32,000 nucleotides of DNA, from the NCBI RefSeq assembly GCF_000020025.1, contig NC_010628.1, positions 4,200,001-4,232,000 on the forward strand, given 5' to 3'. This DNA comes from Nostoc punctiforme PCC 73102. GTDB taxonomy: Bacteria > Cyanobacteriota > Cyanobacteriia > Cyanobacteriales > Nostocaceae. A program made the translations under genes and the position numbers. The notes beneath the pieces were generated by a model. That model searched no databases and was not told the origin of the DNA. It saw nothing but the letters and a program-made list of their open reading frames with translations. Shown piece after piece: positions 6,551-32,000 of the stretch (its first letter is position 1; the number at the start of each line of letters is the position of its first letter).

Positions 6551-6558
6551 GAGTGGAT

Positions 6559-14029: not shown

Positions 14030-15217
14030 ATGATGAAGCGGATGTTAAAAAAAAAATCTTTAAATCTTTGGTTAATTGGACTGCTTGTTTTAGCTGGTCT
14101 AGTAGCGAGTACTACAACCTTTTACGGTTTATCTTTCTTTAGGCAAGGAGTGGGAGAAAGCAATACATCAGCTCCAACGATAAAGAAACTAGTAACTAGA
14201 AAGATAACGGCTTTAGGGAGATTGCAACCATTAACAGAAGTTATTCGCTTGTCAGCACCCCAGACTTTAGAGAACGATCGCGTCGCTCAATTGTTTATCA
14301 AAGAAGGTGATAAGTTGAAAAAAGGACAAATAATCGCCACATTAGACTCTAAACAAAGCCTACAATTAGCCTTAAAAGAGGCACAAGAGCAAGTCAGAGT
14401 TGCCCAATCTCGGTATGACCAAATCAAAGCAGGTGCAAAAGCGGGAGATATTCAAGCGCAAAAGGCTACAATTACTAAATTGCAAGCCGAATTACAAGGA
14501 GAAATTGCCACCCAAAAAGCTAATATTGCTCGTTGGCAATCAGAAGTTACCAATGCTCAGGCAGAATATAATCGGTCTCAATCCCTGTACCAACAAGGGG
14601 CGATCGCCGTTTCTGATTTCGATCGCAAGCGTTTAGCCCTAGAAACGGCTCAAGCTCAATTAGCCCAAGCATCTGCCCAGCAAAATGGTACTGTAGCCAC
14701 ACTTGAAGCCCAAATCACCGAAGCCAAAGAAGTACTTAACCGGATAGCTGAAGTACGTCCTGTCGATCTACAAGCTGCAAAAACCGAGATAGACAGAGCC
14801 AATGCTGCTGTAAAACGCGTCCAAAACGACTTAAATCAGGCTGATATCAAGGCACCAATTGCTGGACAAATTATTAAAATTCATACCCGACCGGGGGAAA
14901 AGCTGACTGATGAAGGTATTGCCGATCTAGGGCAAACCAATGACATGGTAGCGATCGCCGAAGTCTATCAAACCGATATTGCTAAAATTCACGTAGGGCA
15001 AAAAGCCCTGATTACCAGTCAAGCATTTACTGGACAAGTCAAAGGCACTGTTTACGAACTTGGACTGGAAGTTATTCGCCAAAATGTGTTTAGTAACCAA
15101 CCAGGAGAAAACCTCGACCGCCGAGTTGTAGAAGTCAAAGTGCGTTTGCAACCTGAAGACAGCGAACGCGTATCCCGTTTGACTAACTTACAAGTCCAAG
15201 TAGCTATAGAAATCTGA
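14030..15217 (+). CDS. devB: ABC-exporter membrane fusion protein, DevB family (HlyD-like)
   Basis: N-terminal TM segment, then ITALGRLQPLTEVIRLSAP...RVAQLFIKEGDKLKKGQIIATLDS, a long coiled coil and a C-terminal beta-barrel region, as in DevB-family adaptors. An AAGGAG RBS abuts the first ATG, so the real start may be the Met at 14042. Confidence 0.8.
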   Translation: MMKRMLKKKSLNLWLIGLLVLAGLVASTTTFYGLSFFRQGVGESNTSAPTIKKLVTRKITALGRLQPLTEVIRLSAPQTLENDRVAQLFIKEGDKLKKGQIIATLDSKQSLQLALKEAQEQVRVAQSRYDQIKAGAKAGDIQAQKATITKLQAELQGEIATQKANIARWQSEVTNAQAEYNRSQSLYQQGAIAVSDFDRKRLALETAQAQLAQASAQQNGTVATLEAQITEAKEVLNRIAEVRPVDLQAAKTEIDRANAAVKRVQNDLNQADIKAPIAGQIIKIHTRPGEKLTDEGIADLGQTNDMVAIAEVYQTDIAKIHVGQKALITSQAFTGQVKGTVYELGLEVIRQNVFSNQPGENLDRRVVEVKVRLQPEDSERVSRLTNLQVQVAIEI

Positions 15218-15290
15218 AGTCAAAAGAATATAGGCTACCTGTGAGAATTCATTAGACAGTCCTTTCATTTTTTCTCCAAAAATTCAATTT

Positions 15291-16457
15291 ATGCTTCGTA
15301 AACTATTTTATAGAATTCCTTTAGCCTGGTTGCAAATGTCCAGGGAAAAAACTCGTTTAGCAGTTGCAATTGTGGGAATTGCTTTTGCAGATATTCTGAT
15401 GTTTGTACAATTGGGGTTTAAGAGTGCGCTCTACGACGCTGCTGTTAGACCTCAATATTCTCTACAAGGGGATCTTTTCTTAATTAATCCCCAGTTTGAA
15501 ACTGTGTTCTCTGTCAAGAGTTTTTCCAGACAACGTTTATATCAAGCTGCGGGATTTGACAGTGTGAGTTCGGTTAGTTACCTCTACATTGATTCTGGAC
15601 AGTGGCGCAATCCTATTACCCACAAAGACCGCCGGATTCTAATTTTTGGCATAGATCCGGCCAATTCTGCTTTTAAATTACCAGAGGTCAATCAACATTT
15701 GGATGACTTAAAAATGCTTGATACTGTGCTATTCGATCAAATGGGACGCTCAGAATATGGCCCCATCTCTGCTCTTTTACAAAAGTCTGATTTCTTACAA
15801 ACAGAAGTTAATAATGTTTTGATCCGAGTAGCAGGAATATTTAATTTGGGAGCATCTTTTGCAGCTGACGGTAACGCCATTACTAGTGAATCAACTTTTA
15901 TGAAGTTATTTCCCAACCGTCGGACAGACCAGATTGATATAGGTATAATTAAACTGAAATCCAATGCAGATATTCAACGGATACAAGCAGATATACAGAC
16001 TATTTTACCCGCAGATATTCAAGTGTTAACACAAGTAGAGTTGGCTACAAGGGAGAAAGAATATTGGGCGAATTCTACTCCCATTGGATTTATATTTGGA
16101 TTAGGTTCACTAGTGGCTTTTATCGTTGGTACAGTGATTGTTTACCAGATTATTTATGCAGATGTCTCCGATCATTTACCAGAATACGCTACATTGAAGG
16201 CAATGGGATATAGCAATCGCTACTTAATAATTGTCATTTTTCAAGAATCATTGATTTTGGCCTTAATAGGCTTCATTCCAGGTTGTGTTCTATCTTTGGG
16301 AGTATATCATGCTGCCCAAATATCTACCCGATTGCCAATTATGATGACAGTTAGTCGAGCTGTTGTTGTGCTGTTGTTGACCATTGTCATGTGTTTTATT
16401 TCTGGAGGTATTGCGATCAATAAGTTACACAAAGCTGACCCTGCGGATATATTTTAA
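15291..16457 (+). CDS. devC: ABC-exporter permease, DevC family (FtsX/MacB-like)
   Basis: IPLAWLQMSREKTRLAVAIVGIAFADILMFVQLGFKSALYDAA... followed by a periplasmic domain and a C-terminal FtsX-type 3-TM bundle. This is the typical DevC architecture and size. Confidence 0.8.
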   Translation: MLRKLFYRIPLAWLQMSREKTRLAVAIVGIAFADILMFVQLGFKSALYDAAVRPQYSLQGDLFLINPQFETVFSVKSFSRQRLYQAAGFDSVSSVSYLYIDSGQWRNPITHKDRRILIFGIDPANSAFKLPEVNQHLDDLKMLDTVLFDQMGRSEYGPISALLQKSDFLQTEVNNVLIRVAGIFNLGASFAADGNAITSESTFMKLFPNRRTDQIDIGIIKLKSNADIQRIQADIQTILPADIQVLTQVELATREKEYWANSTPIGFIFGLGSLVAFIVGTVIVYQIIYADVSDHLPEYATLKAMGYSNRYLIIVIFQESLILALIGFIPGCVLSLGVYHAAQISTRLPIMMTVSRAVVVLLLTIVMCFISGGIAINKLHKADPADIF

Positions 16458-16648
16458 CTAGGTCGATGTAAATAATTATCGTTGGGATTGGGCACGGGAA
16501 AATGGGTTTGATCCTTTTGAGGTCGCAGAGTCTCAATTCGTAAATGTTTAGGGCAACTCATTCGAGATATGCAAACATGATTCTCTGAAATCACAAAACT
16601 TTTCACCAATGATATGATATGTATGAAGATAAGGTAAGATTGAGTTAA

Positions 16649-17779
16649 TTAATTACACCAAGATTTCTCAAAAACTCTATAGACTTTGGAACGTTCAGCC
16701 CCAAGTTTGAGTAACAGTGTTTGAGCCATTGTATTATCTTCTAAGATTGGCGAAAACTCAATTTCAGTATAATTGGAATTTAAATATTGTTGCATTATCT
16801 CGCACCAGAGAAGCACTCCTAAACCCAAGGATTGATATTGTTTGCGGATACACAAGCTATCTAAACGGTAACGCGTAATTTCATTCTCACGACCAAAGGT
16901 GAAGATACGTCGGCCTAAATACCGTAGTAATCCCGGTAAGGTTTTAGTCTGGTGCAGAATTTGAAAAACATCAGGTACAAGCATACCAAACCCAACAGGA
17001 TTATCTCCTATAAGGACAAACAGAAACAGCCGAGGGTCAATTACCTGAATCCAATCCAGCACCAATTGGTAAAATTCCGACCGTTCAATGTATGTATACC
17101 CCCATTGACCTGCAAACCCATCATTGTAGAGATCGCAAACAAGGTCAGATTCTTGGGCAAGCTGATCTGGATTCAACTGACGATAGGTGATTCGTTTATT
17201 GCGCCACCTTTGGGCATTTTTTGTCAAGAACTCAGGGATAGTCAATTCTCCTTTAATTCTGAAAGCGTTATAGTCCTTAGCTTTTTTAAAGCCTGAGGAT
17301 TCTAATTGGTTTGGATAGTATGATCGGTTGTATGGCATGGCCACGTATGGGCTATCATCGAATCCGGCAATTAGCATTCCAGCACCATAAATTGGAGAGA
17401 GGGAAAATGGCCCTAATAGTTGTGTCATACCATAAGACTGAGCCCAATTCTCAACCTGCTCAAATAATATCTTTGATACATCTTGGTCATCAATGCATTC
17501 ATAGAATCCAAAAAAAGCGGTTTGTACACCGTAGGTTTGGTTATAAGTGCCATCGATGGAGCCTGCAATCCGACCAACTATTTTTCCATTCTGGTAAGCC
17601 AGCCATGCTTCTAGAATCCCATGCTCGTAGAATCCACATTCTTCAGGATCGAACATCTTGACAAGATTGGCAACAGGCCAGGAAACCCAATATGGATCGT
17701 CTTTGTAGAGTTGATAGTTGTACTGAAAAAACTGTCGTTTTTTGCGTAGATTGTTAACTTGTCTGATTTCAATAGACAT
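16649..17779 (-). CDS. GNAT-like N-acetyltransferase-family protein (roughly 375-aa two-lobe family)
   Basis: The pattern F..YN.QLYKDDPYWV...FYEHG...AWLAY.NGKIVGRIAG..D...N......AFFGFYECIDD...L......W....G...L.GP...S...G.G.L..GFD..P...MPYN..YYP..LE..GF.K.KD..AF matches, from memory, a widespread uncharacterised GNAT-annotated family. The product call is tentative. Confidence 0.55.
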   Translation of the reverse strand: MSIEIRQVNNLRKKRQFFQYNYQLYKDDPYWVSWPVANLVKMFDPEECGFYEHGILEAWLAYQNGKIVGRIAGSIDGTYNQTYGVQTAFFGFYECIDDQDVSKILFEQVENWAQSYGMTQLLGPFSLSPIYGAGMLIAGFDDSPYVAMPYNRSYYPNQLESSGFKKAKDYNAFRIKGELTIPEFLTKNAQRWRNKRITYRQLNPDQLAQESDLVCDLYNDGFAGQWGYTYIERSEFYQLVLDWIQVIDPRLFLFVLIGDNPVGFGMLVPDVFQILHQTKTLPGLLRYLGRRIFTFGRENEITRYRLDSLCIRKQYQSLGLGVLLWCEIMQQYLNSNYTEIEFSPILEDNTMAQTLLLKLGAERSKVYRVFEKSWCN

Positions 17780-18743: not shown

Positions 18744-20573
18744 ATGAATTGTCTCCGTAATCGGTTTGTTAAGATTGCTCTGACTACCGTGCTTTCTCTA
18801 GGATTGTACCTACTAGCAGCCAATTTTAGCCATCGTGGCAATCTTGTAGAAGCCAATTCTCAATCTCAATTAATTGCACAAGCAAATCGTCGTCCTTCTT
18901 GGCTGGCACCGTCTCCACCTAAGTTCCCTTATTTCCGGGATAGGAAAGTAGTGATTGCCAAGGCACAAAAAATTTCGGATGGTCTTGAAGCCCACATTAA
19001 AGCATGGTTTGCGGGTAAGGCTCCTCCGGGGATTCCAAATACATTGATTCCGAAGGGGGTGGATACCAAAGAATTCCGTAATTTTCGCTTAGTAAAACCT
19101 GAGGAGATTACACCTGAGCAACAATGGGCAGTCCGACCGGCTGAGAAAATTAATCTCAAAGCAACTCGTGGGTTTTTCCCAGACCCCAATGCAACCTACT
19201 TAGTATTACCTAATCTGCTTGCCCCCTTTGGCAGTAAGGTAATCGTTGAAGGAGAATTTCCTCATGCGCGGTTCTTTGACATTCAAGCCACACCTTCGTT
19301 TCATCCTGAAGCCTACCGATATCGGGGCTTTGGTGTTGGCGAAGTGCCGATTGTAGATGTTGATATCGATCCACTACCAGGAAATGTCAATCCATTCCGA
19401 GTAGATGCGAACCGTAATGCCACTAAGCGTAAATATCGAGTGACATTCGATATGGCAATCGGCAATCCTGTTGATTTGAATCCAGTGTTTCGTCCTCCTC
19501 ATTATCGCGCACCTGGCAACAATCGCATGGGTGGCTCAATCCTCTATCAAGGACCTTGGGGAGAGACTAAACCTTGGGGCCATGGACTGGGTGTATGGGA
19601 TATGGGTCAGATATGGATTCGCTATTATGCACCAGATAAAGCTAAGGGTTCCTTAGGGGGTGTAGCACTTCCCAAAGTCTATTATCAGTTCCCTGATGGT
19701 AGAAAATACTATATCCAAGCTGATTTTGAAGGTTGGGAGAATCGATCTAATCGGCGCATTGCTGCTAAGTGGACAGCTCCTGAAGATCCAACTAAACATA
19801 AAGGTGCAAAAACGGGATGGTTCAAGAAATTTGGTATTTTTCGAGCAATTGTTGAGGGAATGGCTTTGGAAGTTCCCTGGTTGAACCTAGACCAGGAGTA
19901 TGTACGCGATCTCGATCTTGGTGTCGCAGGTCGTGGAGAAGACATGCCACCACCTGGTAACTTTTCAGTGGCAGCAACGGAATGTAATTACATTAATTAT
20001 TTGTTACGGGGTATGTCTCTGGGACGGGATAAGGTTGCCGTATTAACTGGTAAATTGCCGACAACTCCACGTACACGCAATGGTGAAGCCGTGATGAAAA
20101 AAGCCCAGGCTCGTTACTGGTCAATCACTGCTACTGATACAGCATTGCCCGAACCTGATGGCTTTGTTGGTGCAGTCTTACATTCAGTCATGGATGATGA
20201 AATTATCACAGATGCTCAGCAGCGATATGCGATCGTTTTATCTCGAGCGGAAGACCGTCCGAAAAATGCAACGGCCAGCAATGGTGTCACCTGGGTCAAC
20301 TGGGGACCAACTACAAACGTCACCTGGACTCTGCGTTGGATGAGCGTTTATCCCAATTGGGACTTTGGTTTAACTCCAGACGATCGCAAGATAGGATGGG
20401 CTAGTGATTGGGCAAGCAAACGATATGACCCATCCATAATTGGACAAAACTCTCACAATGGTGTTTTAGGTGAATATTTACCTGAAATACACTATATGAC
20501 TAAAGCCCGTTTTGAAAAGTTGGGAAATTCCCTCAAACCAGATAAAATTCCCATCTGGGAGGATAACGACTAG
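18744..20573 (+). CDS. 609-aa predicted secreted or membrane-anchored protein of unknown function
   Basis: Long ORF with an N-terminal hydrophobic segment (IALTTVLSLGLYLLAANF). I am not confident of any recognisable domain; ARYWSITATD is faintly reminiscent of DUF1214/DUF1254-type proteins. Confidence 0.7.
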   Translation: MNCLRNRFVKIALTTVLSLGLYLLAANFSHRGNLVEANSQSQLIAQANRRPSWLAPSPPKFPYFRDRKVVIAKAQKISDGLEAHIKAWFAGKAPPGIPNTLIPKGVDTKEFRNFRLVKPEEITPEQQWAVRPAEKINLKATRGFFPDPNATYLVLPNLLAPFGSKVIVEGEFPHARFFDIQATPSFHPEAYRYRGFGVGEVPIVDVDIDPLPGNVNPFRVDANRNATKRKYRVTFDMAIGNPVDLNPVFRPPHYRAPGNNRMGGSILYQGPWGETKPWGHGLGVWDMGQIWIRYYAPDKAKGSLGGVALPKVYYQFPDGRKYYIQADFEGWENRSNRRIAAKWTAPEDPTKHKGAKTGWFKKFGIFRAIVEGMALEVPWLNLDQEYVRDLDLGVAGRGEDMPPPGNFSVAATECNYINYLLRGMSLGRDKVAVLTGKLPTTPRTRNGEAVMKKAQARYWSITATDTALPEPDGFVGAVLHSVMDDEIITDAQQRYAIVLSRAEDRPKNATASNGVTWVNWGPTTNVTWTLRWMSVYPNWDFGLTPDDRKIGWASDWASKRYDPSIIGQNSHNGVLGEYLPEIHYMTKARFEKLGNSLKPDKIPIWEDND

Positions 20574-20912: not shown

Positions 20913-20951
20913 GGGGTTTTTTGTATAAACCCTCGAAAAGGGGGATTATGA
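20913..20951. repeat. Left 39-bp terminal inverted repeat of the recombinase element
   Basis: See the element entry. It overlaps the recombinase stop codon. Confidence 0.8.
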
Positions 20952-21515
20952 GTTTTCTGAAAGGGAAGAGGTAGAATTTCCAAGGTAACGATAGACACTC
21001 GCCTTGGAAAGATCGAAGTCTTTCATCAAGATTTTAATAAGCACGCCTTGCTTCCGTTGAAGCCGAAGTTCCACGATCTGCTCTTGAGACAAACGTTTAC
21101 TCCTGCCAAATCGAACACCTAACTCCTTTGCCTTATTAATGCCATCTAGCTGACGCTCAGAACGGAGTTCAGTCTCAAATTCAGCGATCGCTGCCAGCAT
21201 GTTAAAAAGTAGCCGTCCGGTAGCATCCGACGTGTCGATATTTTGGTCGAGCACCTGCAAGGCAACATGTTTACGCTGGAGTGCATCAGCGATCGTGCAA
21301 AGGTGAAGAGTCGAACGAGCTAACCGATCTAAGCGTGACACAATCAATGTATCGCCATCTCTAACATATTCCAGACAAGCCGCAAGCTGGGAACGTTGCT
21401 GGTTAGTGCCGCTTTGTGTTTCCTGATAAATCTTGTCGCAATGTTTGAGTTTATGTAACTGAATATCCAAACTCTGTCCCGACGAGCTTACTCTTGCGTA
21501 CCCAACCCTCGCCAT
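20946..21515 (-). CDS. Small serine recombinase (resolvase/invertase family, 189 aa)
   Basis: MARVGYARVSSSGQSLDIQ carries the catalytic-Ser motif, followed by DTLIVSRLDRLARS, AEFETELRSERQ and a C-terminal HTH (SKASVYRYL). Size and layout match Hin/Gin/Tn3-type resolvases. Confidence 0.9.
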   Translation of the reverse strand: MARVGYARVSSSGQSLDIQLHKLKHCDKIYQETQSGTNQQRSQLAACLEYVRDGDTLIVSRLDRLARSTLHLCTIADALQRKHVALQVLDQNIDTSDATGRLLFNMLAAIAEFETELRSERQLDGINKAKELGVRFGRSKRLSQEQIVELRLQRKQGVLIKILMKDFDLSKASVYRYLGNSTSSLSENS

Positions 21516-22067: not shown

Positions 22068-22793
22068 ATGTCCGACTGCCAAGCAAAACCTGAAACCAAC
22101 TACTTAAGTACGTCTAGTGGTAAGTATTTGACAGCGTTTCAGAGGAAACTGCTACTACAAAATTTGCAAAAAAGTCTAGTTGAATCCTACCGCCAACGAA
22201 TTGAAATCATGTTGTTGGCAGATGAGGGGAAAACTCAAAGGTCGATTTGTCAAACTTTGGGATGTTGTGCAGCAACAGCACGACATTGGACACACATAGC
22301 CCGGAGTGGCATGGCGCACCAATGGCAAGATTGCCCCATTGGTCGCCCGAAGGCAGTAAATGACCAGTATTTAGAACGTTTGAAAGAACTGGTTAATAGT
22401 AGTCCTCGCGCTCATGGCTATGCTTTTCGTCGGTGGACAGCAAACTGGCTAGGGAAACATCTAGCAAAAGAATTTGGGATTGAGGTGAGCGATCGCCATA
22501 TCAAGCGACTGCTCAAACAGATGGGATTATCCACACTACCAAAACCCAGTAATGTTGAACAAAACAGCACTGAACAAGTTCAGGGTTCCAAAATTTTGAT
22601 TTGTGACCTCCAATCGGCAGGTATTCCAGATGATTCCGAATTTTTACCTATTAATTTTGCCAAATTAGGAAAACATTTAGACATTCATGGCGCAAAATAT
22701 ATCTGCTCAGTTGCTTACTCTGCAACAGTTCAACAATACTCTGGGTCTTTCTCTTTCTACAGAGGAATTTCAACACTGTCTTCAACAAGTTAA
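22068..22793 (+). CDS. Helix-turn-helix protein resembling the N-terminal DNA-binding half of IS630-type transposases (no DDE domain); possible regulator
   Basis: RIEIMLLADEGKTQRSICQTLGCCAATARHWTHIA is the HTH. GRPKAVNDQYLERLKELVNSSPRAHGYAFRRWTANWLGKHLAKEFGIEVSDRHIKRLLKQMGLS is the winged-helix part. I prefer the ATG at 22068 over the TTG at 22002. The 3' 107 nt overlap the transporter ORF. Confidence 0.6.
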   Translation: MSDCQAKPETNYLSTSSGKYLTAFQRKLLLQNLQKSLVESYRQRIEIMLLADEGKTQRSICQTLGCCAATARHWTHIARSGMAHQWQDCPIGRPKAVNDQYLERLKELVNSSPRAHGYAFRRWTANWLGKHLAKEFGIEVSDRHIKRLLKQMGLSTLPKPSNVEQNSTEQVQGSKILICDLQSAGIPDDSEFLPINFAKLGKHLDIHGAKYICSVAYSATVQQYSGSFSFYRGISTLSSTS

Positions 22794-25416
22794 ATTTATC
22801 AACCCAAAAGTCGGCAAGTTTTGGCAAGGAACTGATGCTCAACCAGGAATCTATATTGCGATCGCTGGCAAAGTCAGGTTGCTTGATAGCACCGATGAGT
22901 TAATCGCTACTTTGGAATTGGGAGACTCATTTGGGGAATTTACCTTGTTTAAGGAGGGTGACTTTAGACCTTATGCAGCAAGAGCTTCAGTCAACTTGCA
23001 ACTGTGTTTTATTCCGAGTGAAGTGTTGTGGCCATTGATGGCTAAATATCCTCAAATTCGAGAGCATTTATGGGCTAAGGCGCTGTCCCGTAATCCGCAA
23101 CAGTTAGACTCAGATAACCCCCCAGTACTGCCAACTGACTCAAAAAGGCTGCATGAAACAAGGATTTTGTCAACACCAGCAGTAGAGCCAAGCGCGAAAA
23201 AGATTAGCAAAGCCTATTTTCCCAACTCCACGCAGCGAGTGGGGCATTTATTACAACGTGTGATTCGGCGCTACCCATTTTTTGCCCAACAGAGTGGATC
23301 GGATTGTGGTGCAGCTTGTTTAGTGATGGTGTCTCGGTATTGGGGGAAAAACTTTAGTGTAAATCGCTTGCGGGATATCGCCAATGTTGACCGTAATGGC
23401 TCATCGTTGCGGGGGTTATCGGCGGCGGCAGAAAGTATTGGGTTTGCTACGCGACCAGTGAAAGCGAGTCTTGACCAATTGGCCAAGCAAAAATTGCCTG
23501 CGATCGCCCACTGGGAAGGCAAGCATTACATTGTAGTCTACGAAATTACCCCTAAACAGGTAATTGTGGCAGATCCTGGTATTGGTCAACGCACCCTCAG
23601 CCACCAAGAATTTAAAGCCAACTGGACTGGCTATACACTGCTACTGCAACCCACAGCCTGGTTGAAGGATGCCAAAGAAACTATAACTCCCTTTTGGCAA
23701 TTCTTTGAATTGATGAAGCCTCACGCTTTAGTGATGCTAGAAGTGTTTATCGCTTCCTTATTTATCCAGATTTTTGGACTTGTTACTCCTTTATTTACCC
23801 AGCTAATTTTAGACCGTGTAGTAGTACAGCGTTCTGAACTAACCTTAACGGCGGTGGGATTAGGCTTACTGATTTTTAGTTTATTCCGTGTGGCGATGAC
23901 AGGATTGCGGCAATACCTGTTAGACCACACAGCGAATAAGGTAGATTTAGCCCTGATTGTCGGATTTATTCGCCATACCCTGCGGCTACCTTTGAGTTAC
24001 TTTGAGTCCCGTTATGTGGGGGATATTATCTCTCGCGTACAGGAAAACCGCAAAATTCAACGCTTCCTCTCAGGTGAGGCATTATCGATCCTGCTAGATT
24101 TAGTCACTGTTTTTATTTATTTAGGATTGATGTTTTGGTACAGTTGGAAAATGGCGTTATTAGTATTAGTAATTATACCGCCTTTTTTCCTTTTGGCATT
24201 GATTGCCACACCTTTTTTACAAAAGATTTCTAGGGAAATCTTTAATGCTGTTGCCAAAGAAAGTAGCTATCTAATTGAAACTCTTTCTGGTATACGAACG
24301 GTTAAATCCACAGCAGTAGAACAAACGGTGCGGTGGCATTGGGAAGAGTTATTAAGTAAGGAAGTAAAAACTAACTTTTCCGGGCAAATTATCAGCAATC
24401 GGTTGCAAATATTCAGCAACACAATTGAAGCAGTGCTAACTACCGTCTTACTGTGGTTTGGGGCGTACCAAGTTATTCATAACGAGTTAACCATTGGGCA
24501 ATTGGTGGCATTTAATATGCTGCTAGGAAATATTATTACACCCTTCCAACGATTAACAGTTTTGTGGAATCAATTACAAGAAGTGGTGATTGCAGTAGAA
24601 CGCATTAATGATGTCTTGGATGCGGAACCAGAAGAGGATTTGCAGCATCAGGTACGACAATCTTTACCATCAATTCAAGGTAATATTCGCTTTGATAACG
24701 TGACATTTCGCTATCACCCCGAAAGCGATGTTAATGTTTTGGAAAATCTCAGTTTTGAAGTCCAAAGCGGGCAAATGGTTGCTCTGGTCGGACGGAGTGG
24801 TTCGGGGAAAACCACAATTTCTAAGCTGGTTTTGGGGTTATATCCTCCCACAGATGGCAAAGTGTTGATTGATGGACAGGATATTACCAGTCTTTCGTTG
24901 CGTTCTCTACGCGAACAGGTTGGGGTAGTTGACCAAGATACCTTTTTGTTTGGTGGAACGATTCGGGAAAATATTAGCTTGGCACATCCTGGGGCAACTT
25001 TGGTAGAGATTATTGAAGCGGCGCGATTGGCGGGTGCCGATCAGTTTATTAAAAACTTACCTATGGGTTATGAAACCCAGATTGGGGAAGGAGGGGGGAT
25101 GTTATCTGGAGGACAGCGACAAAGAATTGCGATCGCAAAAGCATTGTTAGGCAATCCCAAGCTGTTGATTTTGGATGAGGCCACTTCCCATCTAGATGCA
25201 GAGTCAGAAAGGATTATCCAGACGAATTTAAACACAATTCTTCAAGACAGAACCACCTTAGTCATCGCCCATCGCCTTTCAACTGTGCGGAATGCAGATT
25301 TGATTTTAGTGTTAGATCGCGGCGTGTTGATTGAAAGTGGGACTCACAAAGAGTTGATGGCGAAGCGAGGACATTATTTTTATCTCAATCATCAGCAGAT
25401 GGATGTTGCCGGGTGA
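22687..25416 (+). CDS. Cyclic-nucleotide-binding-domain / C39 peptidase / ABC transporter fusion (double-glycine-leader peptide processing exporter)
   Basis: cNMP-like segment GDSFGEFTLFKEGDFRPYAARA. C39 catalytic set: Q-x4-DC (QQSGSDCGAACLVMVSRYWG), H (EGKHYIVVYE) and D (VADPG). Six-TM ABC_membrane domain. Walker A GRSGSGKTT, signature LSGGQRQR, Walker B LLILDEATS and H-loop IAHRLS. Confidence 0.9.
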   Translation: MAQNISAQLLTLQQFNNTLGLSLSTEEFQHCLQQVKFINPKVGKFWQGTDAQPGIYIAIAGKVRLLDSTDELIATLELGDSFGEFTLFKEGDFRPYAARASVNLQLCFIPSEVLWPLMAKYPQIREHLWAKALSRNPQQLDSDNPPVLPTDSKRLHETRILSTPAVEPSAKKISKAYFPNSTQRVGHLLQRVIRRYPFFAQQSGSDCGAACLVMVSRYWGKNFSVNRLRDIANVDRNGSSLRGLSAAAESIGFATRPVKASLDQLAKQKLPAIAHWEGKHYIVVYEITPKQVIVADPGIGQRTLSHQEFKANWTGYTLLLQPTAWLKDAKETITPFWQFFELMKPHALVMLEVFIASLFIQIFGLVTPLFTQLILDRVVVQRSELTLTAVGLGLLIFSLFRVAMTGLRQYLLDHTANKVDLALIVGFIRHTLRLPLSYFESRYVGDIISRVQENRKIQRFLSGEALSILLDLVTVFIYLGLMFWYSWKMALLVLVIIPPFFLLALIATPFLQKISREIFNAVAKESSYLIETLSGIRTVKSTAVEQTVRWHWEELLSKEVKTNFSGQIISNRLQIFSNTIEAVLTTVLLWFGAYQVIHNELTIGQLVAFNMLLGNIITPFQRLTVLWNQLQEVVIAVERINDVLDAEPEEDLQHQVRQSLPSIQGNIRFDNVTFRYHPESDVNVLENLSFEVQSGQMVALVGRSGSGKTTISKLVLGLYPPTDGKVLIDGQDITSLSLRSLREQVGVVDQDTFLFGGTIRENISLAHPGATLVEIIEAARLAGADQFIKNLPMGYETQIGEGGGMLSGGQRQRIAIAKALLGNPKLLILDEATSHLDAESERIIQTNLNTILQDRTTLVIAHRLSTVRNADLILVLDRGVLIESGTHKELMAKRGHYFYLNHQQMDVAG

Positions 25417-25488
25417 AACAAAAGGACAAGGAGGAAGCTTTTCTTATCTCCCTATATCCAAAATTCCAAATTGATATTAGGAAAAATC

Positions 25489-27012
25489 ATGCCAAATACA
25501 TTGAATGGAAGGGTTCAAACCCAAATCTATGATGTAGAACAGCACGAAGAAATTTTAAGAGAGCAAATACCAGCTAGATCGACTGATGATTGGGCTGATG
25601 CAACCAAGGATTTACTTGATAGCTTGCCCCAGGTTTGGACAAGGGGATTGTTGTACTTTTTAATCGTGTTTGTGTCGATCATTTTACCTTGGGCAATGCT
25701 ATCTAAAGTGGATGAAACTGGTACAGCAAGAGGGCGGCTTGAGCCAAAGGGAAAGACGGTTAGACTCGATGCTGCTGTGGCAGGTACTGTTGCCGAAATT
25801 CGGATAAAAGAGGGCGATTCGGTTAAAGTTGGGCAGACTTTATTAGTGTTGGAATCGGAATTAGTTAAAGCAGAATTACGGCAAGTGCAAGATAAGTTAG
25901 AAGGACAATTAAATCGACTTTCTCAGTTAAATTCATCTAAAAGTCAGTTAGTTGTATCTTTGACAACTCAACAGCAACAAAACCAATCTCAAGAGTTAGA
26001 AAAGCAGTCTCAAATTGACCAAGCGCGAGAGAATATGAATGCTCTTAGGAATTCTTATGACTTACAAAAAGACGAAAAATTAGCTCAAGTTAATCAGGCA
26101 CGGCAAACTCTTGAACATAGTCAGACAGCTAATAAGTTAGTAAACAGTAGTTTGACGAGTACCGAGCGGGAAGTGGAACGCTATCGCAATCTTTGGCAAT
26201 CAGGCGTTGTGCCAGAAATTAATGTTGTTGAAAAACAAGATATAGCTAAAGACAAGCAACAGTTATACGAACAAAATAAATCAGATATTCAGCAAGCTAA
26301 ACTACGTTTGCTAGAACAACAGAGTAGTTATGAGCGGACTATTCGGCAAGCAAATGCAGATATTGAGCAGGCAGAATTGCGGCTGAAAGAACAGGAAAGG
26401 AGTTATCAGACCTTAACTCGTTCCAGCAAGCTAGCTGTGTTAAAAATCGACGAACAACAGAAGAGTTTAGAAACAGAAATTACTACGCTTCAGGCAGAAA
26501 TTGCTCAAACCAAGAGTCAGATTGTCTCCTTAAAGTTTCAGTTAGGACAACGAGAGTTAAGAGCCACAGTGAATGGTAGAGTGTTTCAGTTACCGATACA
26601 ACGGGCTGGGTCTGTAGTGCAGCCAGGAACAATGATTGCAGAAATTGCACCTCAAGGTTCGCCTTTAATAATTCGGGCGCAAATGGCGACAACTGAAAGT
26701 GGTTTTTTGCGAAAAGGGTTGCCAGTCAAATTAAAGTTTGACGCTTATCCCTTTCAGGATTATGGAATAGTAGAAGGCAATTTAGCAGAGATTTCCCCTA
26801 CTACCTTAGAAGTAGATACACCTAATGGCAAGGTAGCAGCTTATGACTTAGAAATTGCCTTAAAACAAAATTGTCTTCTCTCGGCGAATAAGTGTATTGC
26901 CTTGCATCCTGGGGATACTGCAACAGCTGAAGTTATTGTGCGTCAGCGTCGGATTATTGATTTTCTGCTCGATCCATTTAAGCAATTGCAGCAGGGTGGG
27001 GTGAAATTGTAA
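25489..27012 (+). CDS. HlyD-family type I secretion membrane fusion protein
   Basis: N-terminal TM (LLYFLIVFVSIILPWAML), a lipoyl-like motif (GTVAEIRIKEGDSVKVGQTLLVLES), a very long Q/E-rich coiled coil and a C-terminal beta domain. The ATG at 25489 is preceded by a GGAGGAAG-type RBS region; the track start at 25471 is a TTG. Confidence 0.85.
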   Translation: MPNTLNGRVQTQIYDVEQHEEILREQIPARSTDDWADATKDLLDSLPQVWTRGLLYFLIVFVSIILPWAMLSKVDETGTARGRLEPKGKTVRLDAAVAGTVAEIRIKEGDSVKVGQTLLVLESELVKAELRQVQDKLEGQLNRLSQLNSSKSQLVVSLTTQQQQNQSQELEKQSQIDQARENMNALRNSYDLQKDEKLAQVNQARQTLEHSQTANKLVNSSLTSTEREVERYRNLWQSGVVPEINVVEKQDIAKDKQQLYEQNKSDIQQAKLRLLEQQSSYERTIRQANADIEQAELRLKEQERSYQTLTRSSKLAVLKIDEQQKSLETEITTLQAEIAQTKSQIVSLKFQLGQRELRATVNGRVFQLPIQRAGSVVQPGTMIAEIAPQGSPLIIRAQMATTESGFLRKGLPVKLKFDAYPFQDYGIVEGNLAEISPTTLEVDTPNGKVAAYDLEIALKQNCLLSANKCIALHPGDTATAEVIVRQRRIIDFLLDPFKQLQQGGVKL

Positions 27013-27054
27013 AAAACCAACTTTCCCTACGTTCAAAAGATATGGAAATTAGAA

Positions 27055-27086
27055 ATGTAGAGACGTTATATGTAATATCTCTACAT
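27055..27086. repeat. Nostoc-type REP-like hairpin (degenerate GTAGAGACG...CGTCTCTAC family) after the HlyD gene
   Basis: ATGTAGAGA (27055-27063) pairs with TCTCTACAT (27078-27086). It may also act as the operon-internal terminator. Confidence 0.4.
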
Positions 27087-27151
27087 CCAGCTAAGAAGTC
27101 ATGCTCTCATATTTAATTTTAATTTTGCTAACCAAATTTAGGATAAATATC

Positions 27152-27880
27152 ATGTCACAATCTATCAACATTACCAACGAAGACATTCTACACCAAGTTA
27201 AGTTATCTTGTAAAATTCCTGAGATAGTTGAGCAGATTATTACCCGTAAGCTAATCATAGCGGCTGCTGAAGAAGCTGGAATAAAAGTAGAGGTTGAGGA
27301 ACTTCAGAAAGCAGCAGACCAAATACGGTTAGTTAATAAACTCGATAGTGCCGATCGTACTTGGCAATGGTTAGAGAAACATAGTTTGTCCTTAGATGAT
27401 TTTGAAGAAATTGCTTACTTAAATCTCATATCTGGAAAATTAACTAATCATCTTTTTGCTGATAAGGTTGAACCCTATTTCATTGAGAACCAACTAGATT
27501 ATGTTGGTGTGGTGATGTATGAAGTTGTTCTAGATGACGAAGATTTAGCCCTAGAACTCTTCTATGCGATTAAGGAAGGTGAAATGAGTTTCTATGATGT
27601 AGCTCACAAATTTATTCAGGATACTGAGTTACGCCGAAAAGGGGGATATTTAGGGATAGTGCGCCGCAAAGATTTAAAACCAGAGATTTCTGCTGCTGTT
27701 TTTAGTGCTAAACCGCCACAGGTTATTAAACCAATTGTAACATCTAAGGGAATACATTTGATTTTAGTAGAGGAATTAATTCAACCAGACCTAAATGAGA
27801 AACTTCGCACAAATATCATTTTTAACTTATTCTCTCACTGGCTTAATCAACAAATTGCACAATCTGAAACAAGTAAGTAA
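27152..27880 (+). CDS. Parvulin-type peptidyl-prolyl cis-trans isomerase with a SurA-like N-terminal helical domain
   Basis: The C-terminal GGYLGIVRRKDLKPEISAAVFSAKPPQVIKPIVTSKGIHLILVEE is a PpiC/parvulin pattern. There is no clear signal peptide from Met 27152. The alternative ATG at 27101 adds MLSYLILILLTKFRINI. Confidence 0.75.
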   Translation: MSQSINITNEDILHQVKLSCKIPEIVEQIITRKLIIAAAEEAGIKVEVEELQKAADQIRLVNKLDSADRTWQWLEKHSLSLDDFEEIAYLNLISGKLTNHLFADKVEPYFIENQLDYVGVVMYEVVLDDEDLALELFYAIKEGEMSFYDVAHKFIQDTELRRKGGYLGIVRRKDLKPEISAAVFSAKPPQVIKPIVTSKGIHLILVEELIQPDLNEKLRTNIIFNLFSHWLNQQIAQSETSK

Positions 27881-27934: not shown

Positions 27935-27943
27935 GGCCCAGAC
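27935..27943. repeat. Left copy of the 9-bp target-site duplication GGCCCAGAC
   Basis: It lies immediately outside the left IR and is identical to 30144-30152. Confidence 0.8.
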
Positions 27944-28102
27944 CATCAGTGAGAGGTTAGAGTGATTGCACTTTTGTCAAGAGGGTGCAGGAAAAGGAGA
28001 TAAATCCAGCTTGGAGATTGGTTTTCGCAGGGCTTTAACTACTCCTAAATCTTGATTTTCTTTGGCAGCAAAGTACTTAATAGGGTCATCCGCTTTACCT
28101 TT

Positions 28103-29338
28103 GTGATAGGGGGTGCATCCCAGTTTTTATTATTCCAAAACAAATAAATAACAGGGAAGGATTGTTACAGAAAACGGAAGTCAGGAAGTAAGGGGATATC
28201 AGGAAGGGATAATAAAGTCATCAAGACTAGGTGTATCAATGACTCCTGAAGAAGAACAACAGATAAAAGAATATTCTCGTGCAATAGCAAAGATACTGTA
28301 CAAAAGTACTACGGGTGAGCAACTCACAAGTTTGGCAAAAATAGAAGAAGTAGTACGCTCTCAAATGCGGAAGCATGTAATGCCAGAAGTAGGGTTTTTT
28401 TATCGAAAATGCCGCAGGAGAAAGCAGAGGATACAAACGAAAAATAAAAAGTATTATTGGAGAACTGCCAATTACAAACTCTCAAGCACAAAAGCTAGAA
28501 ATTAGACCCCATAATCAATTGAGTCCATATTTAGAAGCTTGTTGCTTACGAATCAGCGCGTCGGTATCGTATCAACGTGCGGCAGAAGATATTGAATATT
28601 TAACTGGTGTAGAAGTATCAAAAAGTGTGCAGCAACGATTAGTGCATCGTCAAAATTTTGAATTACCGCAAGTAGAATCAACTGTGGAAGAATTGAGTGT
28701 GGATGGAGGAAATATACGCATTCGTACAATCAAGGGACAAGTCTGTGATTGGAAGGGTTATAAAGCTACCTGCTTACATGAAAAACAAGCTATTGCTGCC
28801 TCATTTCAAGAAAATAGTCTTGTAATTGATTGGGTCAAAAGCCAATCAATTGCTCCTATCTTGACCTGTCTTGGCGATGGCCATGACGGTATTTGGAATA
28901 TTGTCCGCGATTTTGCTCCCGAACACCAGCGTCGGGAAGTACTTGATTGGTTTCATCTGATGGAAAACCTACACAAGATTGGCGGTTCTAATCAACGGCT
29001 CAATCAGGCTAAAATCCTTCTCTGGCAAGGAAAAGTTGATGATGCTATCGCTGTCTTTGCTGACTGTCAGCTAAAACAAGCTTTTAATTTCTGTACTTAT
29101 CTTGAGAAACATCGACACCGGATTGTCAATTACCAATATTATCAAGCAGAACAAATCTGTTCCATTGGTTCTGGTGCTATTGAGTCTACTGTCAAACAGA
29201 TTGACCGTCGAACCAAAATTTCTGGCGCACAATGGAAATCTGATAACGTTCCTCAAGTCTTAGCTCAACGCCAGAGCTTATCTCAATGGATTAATCTTTG
29301 CTCACTAAATAAAAACTGGGATGCTCCCTGTCATAGGC
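28103..29338 (+). mobile_element. Possible inner element carrying the ISKra4-like transposase (boundaries approximate)
   Basis: Inverted repeat with a perfect 17-bp core: GCATCCCAGTTTTTATT (28115-28131) and AATAAAAACTGGGATGC (29308-29324). Weaker matches extend outward. No target duplication is seen. Confidence 0.35.
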
Positions 29339-29346
29339 GACACTAA
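28239..29346 (+). pseudogene. ISKra4-family-like transposase gene split by a single frameshift in a T7 run
   Basis: ORFs 28239-28505 and 28519-29346 join into one frame if one T is removed from TTTTTTT at 28395-28401. The joined frame reads ...MPEVGFFIENAAGESRGYKRKIKSIIGELPITNSQAQKLEIRPHNQLSPYLEACCL.... Downstream motifs (LTCLGDGHDGIWNI, DWFHLMENLHK, SIGSGAIESTVKQI, KISGAQW) match my memory of cyanobacterial ISKra4-family transposases. Confidence 0.65.
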
Positions 29347-29864
29347 AATGGTACAAGCCACGAAAAATCATCTCTAAAGAAATGCGGTCAAATGGTAAAG
29401 CTAATTCATCAGCTATCCAAAGTCGTTCAAAATTAAGTAGTGCGAACTTAATGCTATCAGGCAGTGGTCGCTTAAGCCGTTGCTGCCAATTCAGTTGTAA
29501 CTGAGGTAGTAAATCTTTAAAGACCCGCTCAAATAATTCAGCAGGGAAAACTAAAAATCTTTCTGACAAAGACTGTTGAGCAACTTTAGTAACAGGACAC
29601 CATAATAAACCTTCTCATGCTAACAGACGATTCAACTCTTGAACGCCAGGAACTTGTCGCCACAACAGTGTTAATATTGCTGCTACCATTAAAGATAAAT
29701 TGAGAACTCTGTCTCGTAATCCTAACTGTTTATAATATTTTTGTTGGGCAAAAACTGCTGGGGTTAAATATTGCTTCTAAGTGTTTAGCGATCGCTTCAT
29801 TATCTATAGTAGGAGTATTATGTCGGTGTGGGTAGTCAGAGTTTTGTTTTGGTCGCTTGGGCAT
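29339..29864 (-). pseudogene. 5' portion of a DDE transposase gene (IS4-superfamily-like) with a frameshift, an in-frame TGA and a 3' truncation
   Basis: The minus strand reads MPKRPKQNSDYPHRHNTPTIDNEAIAKHLEA, then a frameshift in a T-run. It continues LTPAVFAQQKYYKQLGLRDRVLNLSLMVAAILTLLWRQVPGVQELNRLLA*EGLLWCPVTKVAQQSLSERFLVFPAELFERVFKDLLPQLQLNWQQRLKRPLPDSIKFALLNFERLWIAD.... No catalytic DDE region follows. The family assignment is from memory. Confidence 0.5.
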
Positions 29865-30143
29865 GGTGGTAAACCAAACTTTTCATTACCTCGTTTAATA
29901 ATTGAATTTACACAACAATGTTGCCCGCTTCTTGCTTTAGTTTTTTGTCGTTACAATACTTTTTCTTACCTTATTTAAGTTATCAATTACCTTCAAGATA
30001 ATGATAATCAAATAGTGGGGGAGGAGGCAAGCTTCTCTTGCCTTCTCCCCCTCTCCCCATACACGATTATCATTCTTATTAAGACTATTTTGAGTATTTT
30101 AGCTGATTGACAAAAGGCGCTTTATTCTAACCTCTTACGGATG

Positions 30144-30152
30144 GGCCCAGAC
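30144..30152. repeat. Right copy of the 9-bp target-site duplication GGCCCAGAC
   Basis: It lies immediately outside the right IR and is identical to 27935-27943. Confidence 0.8.
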
Positions 30153-30463: not shown

Positions 30464-30703
30464 TTAGTCAAGTCCCAAAGTTGCTAGTGTTATTGTTTTT
30501 ATTGTCAAGATAGCTGTTGTTTCTGTTGTTGGTATAGCTGTTGTTGTTGTAGCCGTTACTGTTGTTACTGTTATTATTGTTGAATTGAGTCCACCCTGAA
30601 TGCTGAGAGCATCACTTTCAGACAATTGGTCCAAATAGCTTTCGGAATCATCAAATAATTCACTGCCAGTAACGGATAGATTATCAATTTTTATTGTACT
30701 CAT
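30464..30703 (-). CDS. Double-glycine-leader peptide precursor with a 41-aa threonine-rich core
   Basis: Strong RBS (AAGGAGA, 7 nt upstream). The leader MSTIKIDNLSVTGSELFDDSESYLDQLSESDALSIQGG has hydrophobic residues at -4, -12 and -15. The core is LNSTIITVTTVTATTTTAIPTTETTAILTIKTITLATLGLD. Confidence 0.8.
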   Translation of the reverse strand: MSTIKIDNLSVTGSELFDDSESYLDQLSESDALSIQGGLNSTIITVTTVTATTTTAIPTTETTAILTIKTITLATLGLD

Positions 30704-31115
30704 TGCTTTATCTCCTTTGAAGAATTATTCAGGTTGCATAGGTATTAATTGCTGTATTTACCAATACTTACCTGAAAATATCTATATCTTAAAAGTTAAG
30801 ATTAGCAAATTCAATTTACAAAATTACTTTTTGATGACATAATTATTTCATTATTAGCTTAATTTTAAATATAAAAAAAGTTTTTAGACAAATTGAAGAG
30901 TTTGCTTTTAATATAAGACATTAACAAGGCTCATCTCTATTATTATGGGTAAAATAATCTAGGAGAAATCCAATTATAAAATTATAGTATATTAAAAAGA
31001 GACAAAACTAATTCATTTATGCGATCGCAAATTTTAAATCTGAGCAAAAACTAGAAAAAAATCAGCCCAAAATCCCTCTTGGACTGAACGATAAAAATTT
31101 AGATTTTGACTTTGT

Positions 31116-31304
31116 TCAAAGTAGTTCACTGTTTGAATTCGCTTCTTTCTGCTCAATATGTTGGCTCTGTTGTTGGCGACCTAGATATGAATCTTTATCG
31201 TTCTTACCTACAATGTATCCAAAGGCTGCACTTCCAATAGCTAGGAACAACAGTAGAACAATGCCTTCGTAACCATTGGGTTGATAAACAGGAGGCTGAC
31301 TCAT
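31116..31304 (-). CDS. 62-aa single-TM protein: leaderless paralog of the neighbouring precursor core (candidate immunity or partner protein)
   Basis: MSQPPVYQPNGYEGIVLLLFLAIGSAAFGYIVGKNDKDSYLGRQQQSQHIEQKEANSNSELL. The segment GSAAFGYIVGKNDK aligns with ASAALGYAVGRNDR of the 63-aa precursor. The RBS is weak. Confidence 0.55.
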   Translation of the reverse strand: MSQPPVYQPNGYEGIVLLLFLAIGSAAFGYIVGKNDKDSYLGRQQQSQHIEQKEANSNSELL

Positions 31305-31434: not shown

Positions 31435-31626
31435 CTAGCGATCGTTACGACCCACTGCATATCCTAGTGCAGCAGAAGCTAAACCAAGGCTGATAAGTGC
31501 AAAAATGGTGAAACCACCATGAGATGATCCTGCTTGTTCATCAGATAGCTCGTTGAGAAAGCTTTCCTGATCTATAAAAAGAGATGAACCGGCTGGTTTA
31601 ATGTCGCTAATACAAATGGTTGCCAT
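31435..31626 (-). CDS. Double-glycine-leader peptide precursor with a 25-aa hydrophobic core
   Basis: AAGGAAA RBS upstream. Leader MATICISDIKPAGSSLFIDQESFLNELSDEQAGSSHGG and core FTIFALISLGLASAALGYAVGRNDR. Confidence 0.8.
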   Translation of the reverse strand: MATICISDIKPAGSSLFIDQESFLNELSDEQAGSSHGGFTIFALISLGLASAALGYAVGRNDR

Positions 31627-31799: not shown

Positions 31800-32000
31800 T
31801 TAGTAGTAGCGACCTTTAATGTAGGAAGCAACAAAAGTAACACCAACAACAGTAAGACCAATGCTTAAACAAGCTCCACTACTAGCTGTAGTGATAACTG
31901 TCCAAATAGCACCACCTTGATTACCTAATTCATCTTCAGTTAAAGACATCAGATAGCTTTCTTGATCGGCAAACAAATCGTAACCGGCTGGGCGTAAATC
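31800..32000 (-). CDS. Third double-glycine-leader peptide precursor, 5'-truncated by the window edge
   Basis: Not in the ORF track. The minus strand from 32000 reads DLRPAGYDLFADQESYLMSLTEDELGNQGG followed by the core AIWTVITTASSGACLSIGLTVVGVTFVASYIKGRYY*, with the stop at 31800-31802. The leader is homologous to the other two. Confidence 0.75.
   Translation of the reverse strand, partial: DLRPAGYDLFADQESYLMSLTEDELGNQGGAIWTVITTASSGACLSIGLTVVGVTFVASYIKGRYY

Follow-up and report, generated by a model that had tools for sequence, protein, structure and literature searches.

Gene content of the export locus

The 32,000-nucleotide stretch considered here (the window) corresponds to positions 4,200,001-4,232,000 of the Nostoc punctiforme PCC 73102 chromosome (CP001037) and carries a locus built around a peptidase-containing ATP-binding cassette (ABC) exporter with an N-terminal domain of the cyclic-nucleotide-binding (CNB) fold. 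This exporter is accompanied by a helix-turn-helix (HTH) protein, an HlyD-family adaptor, a parvulin-like putative peptidyl-prolyl isomerase (PPIase) and, beyond an insertion sequence (IS), a set of double-glycine (GG) precursor genes. Judging from gene content and homology, the locus is best regarded, with a probability of about 0.75, as the export and maturation operon of a known kind of cyanobacterial double-glycine peptide cluster, the long-type, group II cluster of Wang, Fewer and Sivonen (2011; PMC3140520). The genes and domains of the export module are as follows, in window coordinates:

22068-22793, plus strand: HTH-only protein of 241 amino acids (aa), WP_041565474.1, with the Pfam families HTH_32, HTH_33 and HTH_23 above cut-off
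22687-25416, plus strand: long-type peptidase-containing ABC exporter of 909 aa (ACC81803.1, UniProt B2J032), recognised by its Pfam domains and catalytic motifs
22714-23106, plus strand: CNB-fold (CRP effector-like) domain of the exporter, residues ~10-140, from PF00027, the AlphaFold2 (AF2) model and Foldseek
23107-23271, plus strand: linker between the CNB and C39 domains, residues 141-195, of low AF2 confidence, with a conserved C-terminal motif
23272-23655, plus strand: C39 double-glycine peptidase domain, from PF03412, catalytic motifs and Foldseek
23737-25413, plus strand: ABC transmembrane domain and nucleotide-binding domain, from PF00664, PF00005, the ABC motifs and homology to PCAT1 and HlyB
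25489-27012, plus strand: HlyD-family type I secretion adaptor of 507 aa (ACC81804.1), from TIGR01843, with one N-terminal transmembrane (TM) helix
27152-27880, plus strand: PrsA/SurA-like parvulin of 242 aa (ACC81805.1) without a signal peptide, from PF00639, fold matches and an active-site alignment

The exporter possesses all the domains expected of a peptidase-containing transporter, each above its Pfam gathering cut-off: cNMP_binding (PF00027; residues 45-121, 34.8 bits against a cut-off of 27.5, E 1.7e-8), Peptidase_C39 (PF03412; residues 196-323, 142 bits against 22), ABC_membrane (PF00664; residues 351-619, 171 bits against 28) and ABC_tran (PF00005; residues 685-834, 128 bits against 25). 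The initial annotation of this DNA, made from the letters alone, had described an intact C39 catalytic set, a complete ABC core and a cNMP-binding-like N-terminal domain of roughly 130 aa; the profile search bears out the last of these, and the motifs of the other two are all in place, with Q201, C207, H280 and D296 forming the C39 set and Walker A (702-709), the Q-loop (Q750), LSGGQ (806-810), Walker B (D830/E831) and the H-loop (H862) the ABC core. The AF2 model of residues 1-340 is very confident for the CNB domain (residues 10-140, predicted local distance difference test score (pLDDT) 93-98) and confident for C39, the two being joined by a linker (residues 152-201) with a pLDDT below 50. 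Foldseek matches the C39 part with the peptidase domains of PCAT1, ComA and LahT (29-40% identity, root-mean-square deviation (rmsd) ~2-2.7 Å), and the C39 and ABC parts are homologous over their full length to the structures of PCAT1, ComA and HlyB. No solved structure combining a CNB with a C39 domain was found among the sequence matches in the structure database. The exporter stays below the curated cut-off of every NCBIfam model, among them TIGR01193 (500.5 against 523.85) and TIGR01846 (672.5 against 725.55); for TIGR01193 the shortfall is put down to the divergence of the subfamily, as no domain is missing.

Although predicted to be disordered, the end of the linker contains a highly conserved segment, KKISKAYFPxPTQRVGHLLQRxxRRYPFF (exporter residues 173-200, 23203-23286), in which A176, Y177, P179, Y196 and P197 are invariant; such conservation in a disordered segment suggests a binding motif. 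The downstream adaptor scores 228.9 bits with TIGR01843 (cut-off 208.65), its single TM helix occupying residues 54-81 of a 513-aa open reading frame (ORF), and the parvulin reaches 46.3 bits with PF00639 (Rotamase; cut-off 21.7). The order initially proposed for these genes, HlyD and then a SurA/parvulin-like PPIase lacking a signal peptide, is confirmed by TIGR01843, PF00639 and hydropathy. Taken together, the comparisons support the reading of the exporter as a peptidase-containing transporter of double-glycine peptides that bears a CNB-fold domain at its N-terminus and is accompanied by an HlyD adaptor and a linked parvulin. By comparison with well-described systems, PCAT1 of C. thermocellum, ComA and LahT share the C39 fold and the Q/C/H/D set, whereas their structures lack the N-terminal CNB domain; the CvaB/HlyB type I systems have a homologous ABC core, and the partnership with HlyD is that of Gram-negative type I secretion.

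As an entity the locus is already known. The exporter, HlyD and PPIase are identical in sequence to ACC81803.1 (B2J032), ACC81804.1 and ACC81805.1, the small ORFs likewise to Npun_R3386 and other database entries, and the UniProt name of B2J032 already carries the words "cyclic nucleotide-regulated". The precursor ORFs were catalogued by coordinate as a "group II" cluster in the 2011 survey (PMC3140520), whose Table S3 entries (4230464-4230703, 4231116-4231304, 4231435-4231626 and 4231800-4232021) match ORFs of the window exactly once 4,200,000 is added to the latter. That survey defined a "long-type" transporter as CAP_ED+C39+ABC, accompanied by HlyD and SurA, and counted 57 group I and 23 group II clusters; PMC3140520 credits Dirix et al. 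2004 with first setting the long type apart, and the scheme was reused by Micallef et al. 2015. CAP_ED, C39, ABC, HlyD and rotamase/SurA are all present in the N. punctiforme locus, which has the same domain set and GG precursors as the published long-type clusters and no difference in kind. The modification genes that separate group II from group I were not recognised at 18-32 kb, and the cluster may extend past the end of the window.

The initial annotation called the combination of a signalling domain with a bacteriocin-type exporter and a linked isomerase functionally uncharacterised. This view is outdated: the architecture and its linkage to SurA, this locus included, were published in 2011, export of GG peptides by PteB has been demonstrated in Synechococcus (PMC4997328), and the signalling domain is partly characterised in a protein of the same architecture, HetC (PMC10986499). 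Leader cleavage coupled to ATP-dependent export is on record for relatives only, namely PteB and HetC. The statements made from the sequence about the exporter, HlyD, the PPIase and the IS all proved correct; as to the extent of the module, the genes named belong to it, and it begins one gene earlier than proposed, with the HTH gene at 22068-22793.

Conservation of the gene set was surveyed by a scan limited to a single genome of each species, for which an alignment of the first 330 exporter residues served as query and which recovered at least 567 relatives; the best 80 of these are all from Nostocales, and a working set of 87 loci (L001-L087) includes more distant ones. Every one of the 76 evaluable Nostocales loci has the exporter together with HlyD and the PPIase, the other 4 contigs stopping right after the exporter; the order is exporter-HlyD-PPIase in 73 and the PPIase lies upstream in 3. 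The same gene set recurs in distant loci that are 41-48% identical in the N-terminal part (L081-L083 and L087), so that the PPIase linkage, on which the initial proposal depended, is conserved. All parts of the cassette are under purifying selection, with ratios of nonsynonymous to synonymous substitution (dN/dS) of 0.06-0.36.

Precursors, exported peptides and the interrupting element

The precursor genes lie on the minus strand, opposite to the exporter genes, beyond a nested insertion:

27943-30144, unstranded: nested IS insertion of 2.2 kb with 38-nt inverted repeats and a flanking GGCCCAGAC duplication
28111-29328, plus strand: inner ISKra4-family element with a broken transposase (NF033572) and 21-nt inverted repeats that are 95% complementary
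30464-30703, minus strand: GG-leader precursor 1, 79 aa, leader ...LSIQGG and a Thr-rich core, assigned by leader family; CDS8 in Table S3 of the 2011 survey
31062-31087, minus strand: terminator-like hairpin of 11 pairs followed by a T-run, 3' of the precursor sub-operon, a consensus match only
31116-31304, minus strand: leaderless 62-aa single-TM protein, an immunity-protein candidate; CDS9 in the 2011 survey
31435-31626, minus strand: GG-leader precursor 2 (Npun_R3386), 63 aa, leader ...SSHGG and a hydrophobic TM-like core, assigned by leader family
31800-32000, minus strand: GG-leader precursor 3 (Npun_R3387), leader ...GNQGG, 73 aa in the genome, its N-terminus lying beyond the window end

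The outer IS is a decayed remnant bounded by imperfect 38-nt inverted repeats at 27943-27980 and 30107-30144 and flanked by the direct repeat GGCCCAGAC at 27935-27943 and 30144-30152; the transposase of the inner element scores 251.6 with NF033572 (cut-off 205) over model positions 115-416 of 422. Once the IS and one repeat copy are removed, the PPIase stop (27880) and the nearest precursor stop (30464) are ~374 bp apart, in keeping with the earlier estimate of about 370 bp and supporting the idea that the IS-interrupted precursors belong to the same locus. No uninterrupted empty site or other IS copy was recovered from the 80 loci by blastn with the IS-deleted junction, the intergenic DNA being too diverged for any locus to span it, and the IS call thus rests on the inverted repeats and the flanking duplication. 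The 2011 survey also counts as a precursor its CDS7, an ORF at 29781-29978 (plus strand) inside the IS remnant; it lacks the leader of the precursor family and is probably spurious as a precursor, to judge from its sequence and position.

A search of 88 sequence sets (the 87 loci and the N. punctiforme window) yielded 109 unique leader-bearing ORFs in 59 of them, mostly within ~2 kb of the PPIase gene and on either strand. The leader, 37-38 aa long, is conserved (MA-x-IKI-x-DL-x-PAGSELF-x-DSESFL-x-EL...GG) and the cores that follow are hypervariable. Two of the precursors are labelled NHLP and N11P in the 2011 survey; the NCBIfam models give no support for these labels, and neither NCBIfam nor Pfam returned an NHLP or N11P match to the precursors at E <= 0.01. 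The TM segment LAIGSAAFGYIVGKNDKD of the leaderless 62-aa protein resembles the core LGLASAALGYAVGRNDR of the adjacent precursor 2, and among the related loci the protein occurs only in L008, beside the same precursors 2 and 3; its sequence is compatible either with a candidate immunity protein or with a precursor that has lost its leader.

What these peptides do is a matter on which two readings can be held. Precursors next to a leaderless TM protein are the arrangement typical of a bacteriocin and its immunity protein, and this arrangement, along with the TM-helix-like cores of precursors 2 and 3, speaks for a bacteriocin-type product. The alternative, put forward tentatively and at somewhat less than even odds, is that the exported peptides are cell-surface, matrix or signalling peptides, the parvulin preventing their premature self-assembly. 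Many cores in related loci (L056, L059, L061, L063, L068 and others) contain alternating β-strand-like runs (TVTVTVTWTWTW, ITITITITF, TLPFTLPWTLTW) or N/T-rich repeats (NANTVGNVNTVG); judged from such composition, they resemble peptides of the cell surface, or ones that self-assemble, more closely than they do classical bacteriocins. Non-antibiotic roles have, moreover, been described for HetC (PMC10986499) and for PteB of Synechococcus elongatus PCC 7942, which exports the GG proteins EbfG1-4 for biofilm formation and requires its catalytic Cys (PMC4997328). PteB is of the same general kind as the N. punctiforme exporter, a cyanobacterial C39 ABC exporter of small, nearby-encoded GG-motif proteins; the text of the PteB paper makes no mention of a cNMP domain, HlyD or PPIase.

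The CNB-fold domain and its putative ligand

The phosphate-binding cassette of the exporter spans G79-A100. HMMER aligns the exporter segment ...fgeftlfkegdfrpyaara... with ...fgemslldege-rsasava... of T. thermophilus CAP (4ev0), so that R94 falls at the cassette Arg and P95 at the Ser next to it, and G83, E84 and R94 stand opposite G71, E72 and R82 of CRP; the likeness to CRP described in the initial annotation, with Glu and Arg kept and Pro in place of Ser, is therefore real. In Foldseek searches, the same part of the protein matches the CNB domains of CAP, GlxR, DNR, FNR, HCN and PKG. The effector domains of CRP, FNR and NtcA share this β-roll fold and the cassette Gly-Glu; they are, however, fused to a DNA-binding domain, whereas the exporter domain is fused to a transporter, and in the exporter family the cassette Arg is not conserved and Pro replaces the Ser/Thr of CRP-type domains.

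The distribution of residues across relatives bears directly on the claim that the exporter is cyclic-nucleotide-gated, a claim resting on R94. In the 87 related loci, position 94 is Lys in 33, Arg in 23, Gln in 21, Glu in 3 and something else in 7, and Lys is also what the two closest fragment homologues carry there (identity of 84-85% across the N-terminal 190 aa); among 96 family representatives at the 50% identity level, the residues found are chiefly Q (29), S (13), L (8), A (8) and I (7). Position 95, Ser/Thr in CRP-type domains, is Pro in 72 of the 87 loci, and a Pro is unable to give a side-chain or backbone hydrogen bond to the cassette phosphate. Cyclic-nucleotide gating is thus poorly supported, and the absence of selection on Arg94 argues that cAMP binding is not the function maintained in the family. 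Other parts of the domain are far more constant: W46, K62, R64, Y96, A98 and A100 are invariant in the 87 loci, E84 and R99 almost invariant, the cassette residues G83 and E84 are kept in 86 of 87, and the domain has a dN/dS of 0.145. The domain family is a narrow one, with 214 of 1.84 billion representatives matching at E <= 0.001; a homologue search with the N-terminal 190 aa returned 42 short fragments, all but four with PF00027. In terms of its sequence and predicted structure, the CNB fold is thus correctly assigned and the cyclic-nucleotide contacts are not conserved, and the domain is probably one that does not bind cyclic nucleotides.

The best available model for what it might sense instead is HetC of Nostoc PCC 7120, like the exporter a peptidase-containing ABC transporter with an N-terminal cNMP_binding domain. 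HetC's N-terminal portion bound ppGpp with a dissociation constant (KD) of 59 ± 11 µM, and GTP and GDP more weakly; it did not respond to cAMP, cCMP, c-di-GMP or 2-oxoglutarate, and the cNMP domain is essential in vivo, its deletion abolishing function (PMC10986499). The same work found the catalytic Cys and His and the ATPase Glu of HetC to be required and makes no mention of an isomerase. HetC is the longer protein, with its catalytic Cys at 347 compared with 207 in the exporter, and neither the names nor an NCBIfam search brought out a HetC-specific model or name among the family representatives. The ligand of HetC is carried over to the exporter by analogy, on the basis of the shared architecture and the HetC paper. 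On this footing neither cAMP nor cGMP is the probable ligand, and (p)ppGpp, GTP or another guanine nucleotide of the non-cyclic kind is the better candidate; a purely protein-protein function of the domain is also possible.

In the protein-protein option, the CNB-fold domain would take no small ligand and would be a module that mediates dimerisation or docks partners such as the HTH protein, the parvulin or the leader peptide. Five residues that lie outside the canonical pocket (W46, Y56, K62, R64 and Y96) are strictly conserved, and the domain always co-occurs with the HTH gene and the PPIase. The main text of the 2011 survey places SurA in groups I, II and VI, those of the long-type transporter (PMC3140520; its Table S2 additionally lists a rotamase under group V), which hints that the parvulin is linked to the transporter type and not to GG-peptide export generally. 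The fusion of the same domain to HlyD in one variant (P0150) points in the same direction. Such a module is nevertheless unlikely, given that the cassette residues G83 and E84 are retained in 86 of 87 loci and that the HetC domain does bind nucleotides (PMC10986499).

A genuine cAMP/cGMP gate, in which a ligand on the N-terminal domain switches leader cleavage or export on and off, was the view taken initially, and it finds some encouragement in the PF00027 score above gathering cut-off, the confidently predicted CNB fold, the alignment of G83, E84 and R94 with the CRP residues and the UniProt name. It has to be considered improbable in view of the variability of position 94 in the loci, in the two closest fragment homologues and in the family representatives, of the Pro at the Ser/Thr position, and of the absence of any signal with cAMP, cCMP or c-di-GMP for HetC's N-terminal portion.

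As to variation in architecture, the listed variants of the N-terminal domain are P0150, P0134, P0126 and P0144: P0150 (660 aa) carries the domain on HlyD instead of on an exporter, and the forms other than this fusion have an extra insert of ~100-120 aa between CNB and C39, which brings the extension to ~310 aa.

HTH protein, parvulin and proposed mechanism

The gene at 22068-22793 encodes a protein that corresponds to the DNA-binding, N-terminal half of an IS630-type transposase and lacks the DDE domain; it covers positions 1-125 of the 299 in the IS630 transposase model NF033545 with 71 bits, under the cut-off of 100. Although it resembles an IS630 fragment, the gene is conserved and under purifying selection (dN/dS 0.23). 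All 87 loci, the distant ones included, have it immediately 5' of the exporter gene and in the same orientation. The final 107 nt of the gene are shared, in a different frame, with the exporter start (22687-22793, the first ~35 codons), and an overlap of 67-103 nt, ~100 nt in most cases, recurs in 78 of 80 Nostocales loci, compared with a gap of 23-213 nt in the distant loci. Homologues number ~1948, and the 120 matches listed are HTH-only proteins of 187-259 aa that are often mis-annotated as transposases. No mention of a link between this HTH gene and these clusters was found in the literature or annotations examined, including the text and supplements of the 2011 survey. On the strength of its sequence and conservation, the protein is best interpreted as a domesticated regulator of transposase origin that forms part of the cassette, and it is likely to be the transcriptional regulator of the latter.

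The start of the parvulin gene lies at 27152 and not at 27101, as indicated by identity to ACC81805.1, an AGGA motif 10 nt upstream and conserved N-termini. Neither the protein nor 120 homologues show a signal peptide, a lipobox or a hydrophobic stretch at the N-terminus, where the homologues have in common the hydrophilic sequence MSQxITITNEDIL; the maximum hydropathy of the parvulin N-terminus is 1.09. The top fold matches in Foldseek are PrsA, SurA and PEB4, with which it shares a helical N- and C-terminal chaperone module around a single parvulin domain, and that domain also matches Pin1 and SurA-P2 at an rmsd of 3.2-3.7 Å; SurA_N is under its cut-off (23.7 against 30.8). Compared with PrsA, SurA and PEB4, the N. 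punctiforme protein has no signal peptide or lipid anchor and departs from them in its active site. In an alignment with Par10, Pin1 and PrsA, E124 takes the place of the first catalytic His within a strictly conserved MYEVVL strand (Glu in 120 of 121 sequences) and GGDLG becomes GGYLG (Tyr in 121 of 121), with D157 and H202 retained; the PF00639 match begins at profile position 21, past the strand carrying E124. The parvulin domain of the initial description is confirmed by PF00639; the isomerase activity is not assured given so divergent an active site, and a chaperone role is at least as likely.

Three further ideas about this protein were tried and rejected. Membership of TIGR04500, the PpiC-related peptide maturation proteins, fails at 59.4 bits against a cut-off of 180; a leader proline as target of the PPIase is not compelling, since no more than 67 of the 109 leaders have a Pro at position 11; and co-variation of the PPIase lineage with the precursor set is not seen, as L008 shares the precursors with a PPIase that is only 73% identical and L019 and L024 share the PPIase lineage and not the precursors. 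At the nucleotide level (~26900-27880), identity to the Nostoc loci L001, L005, L006, L008 and L013 is 82-96% from HTH to HlyD and then 59-80% across the PPIase gene, L019 and L024 being exceptions at 86-90%; the PPIase gene has a synonymous divergence (dS) of 1.17 against ~0.45 for its neighbours. This pattern does not track the precursor set; it suggests that a recombination boundary lies where HlyD and PPIase meet and that the PPIase has two or more lineages.

The upstream gene, the sensor-like domain and the parvulin could be thought of as one device. In this speculative and rather implausible scheme, the HTH protein, the CNB-C39-ABC exporter, HlyD and the parvulin would form a signal-coupled export apparatus specific to long-type transporters, a split-CRP or trigger-transporter circuit. 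The tethered CNB domain would be a sensor of (p)ppGpp or another non-cyclic alarmone and would work with the separately encoded, translationally overlapped HTH protein, and the parvulin might act on the invariant F178-P179 and Y196-P197 bonds at the linker end and not on cargo; if true, export status would be coupled to transcription. An extracytoplasmic parvulin that folds peptides after export, by comparison with its closest structural relatives PrsA, SurA and PEB4, which are all extracytoplasmic, is very improbable for a protein lacking, like its 120 homologues, any signal peptide, lipobox or hydrophobic N-terminus and having an annotated start backed by the AGGA motif and by an NCBI protein of exactly the same sequence.

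The export and maturation operon of a long-type cluster may, by homology with known systems, be pictured to function as follows. The cytoplasmic C39 domain would bind the precursor leader and cut after Gly-Gly, and the peptide would be exported by the ABC core together with the HlyD adaptor and an outer-membrane factor presumably encoded elsewhere. The ~140-residue CRP-effector-fold domain, carried on a flexible linker of ~50 residues, may provide a regulatory input that, with HetC as model, would respond to (p)ppGpp or GTP rather than to cAMP or cGMP. The parvulin could be a cytoplasmic PrsA/SurA-like chaperone that probably keeps aggregation-prone hydrophobic or β-strand-prone precursors export-competent; the cores found in the window, one Thr-rich and β-prone and two like TM helices, are clients of a type that would suit a cytoplasmic holdase. 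The HTH protein of IS630 origin is the likely transcriptional regulator of the cassette.

Several observations weigh against this scheme or parts of it. No outer-membrane factor is encoded within the window. The exporter itself has Glu84 and Arg94 in CRP-like positions, which makes cAMP or cGMP binding conceivable for this particular protein. HetC, the model for its ligand, has no adjacent membrane-fusion protein (HlyD), unlike the N. punctiforme exporter. An operator motif shared upstream of the HTH gene and the precursors was not found in a comparison of 8- and 10-mers. The AF2 model of the parvulin is a moderate one (pLDDT 68), and parvulins mutated in both His residues reportedly keep activity, so that E124 is no proof of inactivity.

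Long-type peptide exporters were present in nearly every cyanobacterial genome surveyed in 2011, and in model strains this kind of transporter is tied to heterocyst differentiation (HetC) and biofilm formation (PteB). The N. punctiforme locus constitutes a compact case that combines a single sensor domain with three precursors and a candidate immunity gene, and its analysis adds three points to the published catalogue: the canonical cyclic-nucleotide contact is not conserved, the active site of the parvulin is altered, and a domesticated transposase-derived HTH gene belongs to the cassette.

An Rfam scan of 20.5-32 kb gave no matches. Upstream of the HTH gene, a serine resolvase gene (20946-21515, minus strand) lies beside a gene for a 609-aa protein (18744-20573, plus strand) with a signal-peptide-like N-terminus and no Pfam or NCBIfam match. 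Further upstream, an unrelated-looking cluster (243-17779) encodes a TubC_N docking-domain protein, two short-chain dehydrogenases/reductases, an FAD/ALO oxidase, an epimerase, a GMC oxidoreductase, a GT4 glycosyltransferase and a methyltransferase, together with an 861-aa SBBP β-propeller/RTX-repeat protein (10812-13397) and a DevB/DevC-like pair of HlyD and FtsX proteins (14030-16457).

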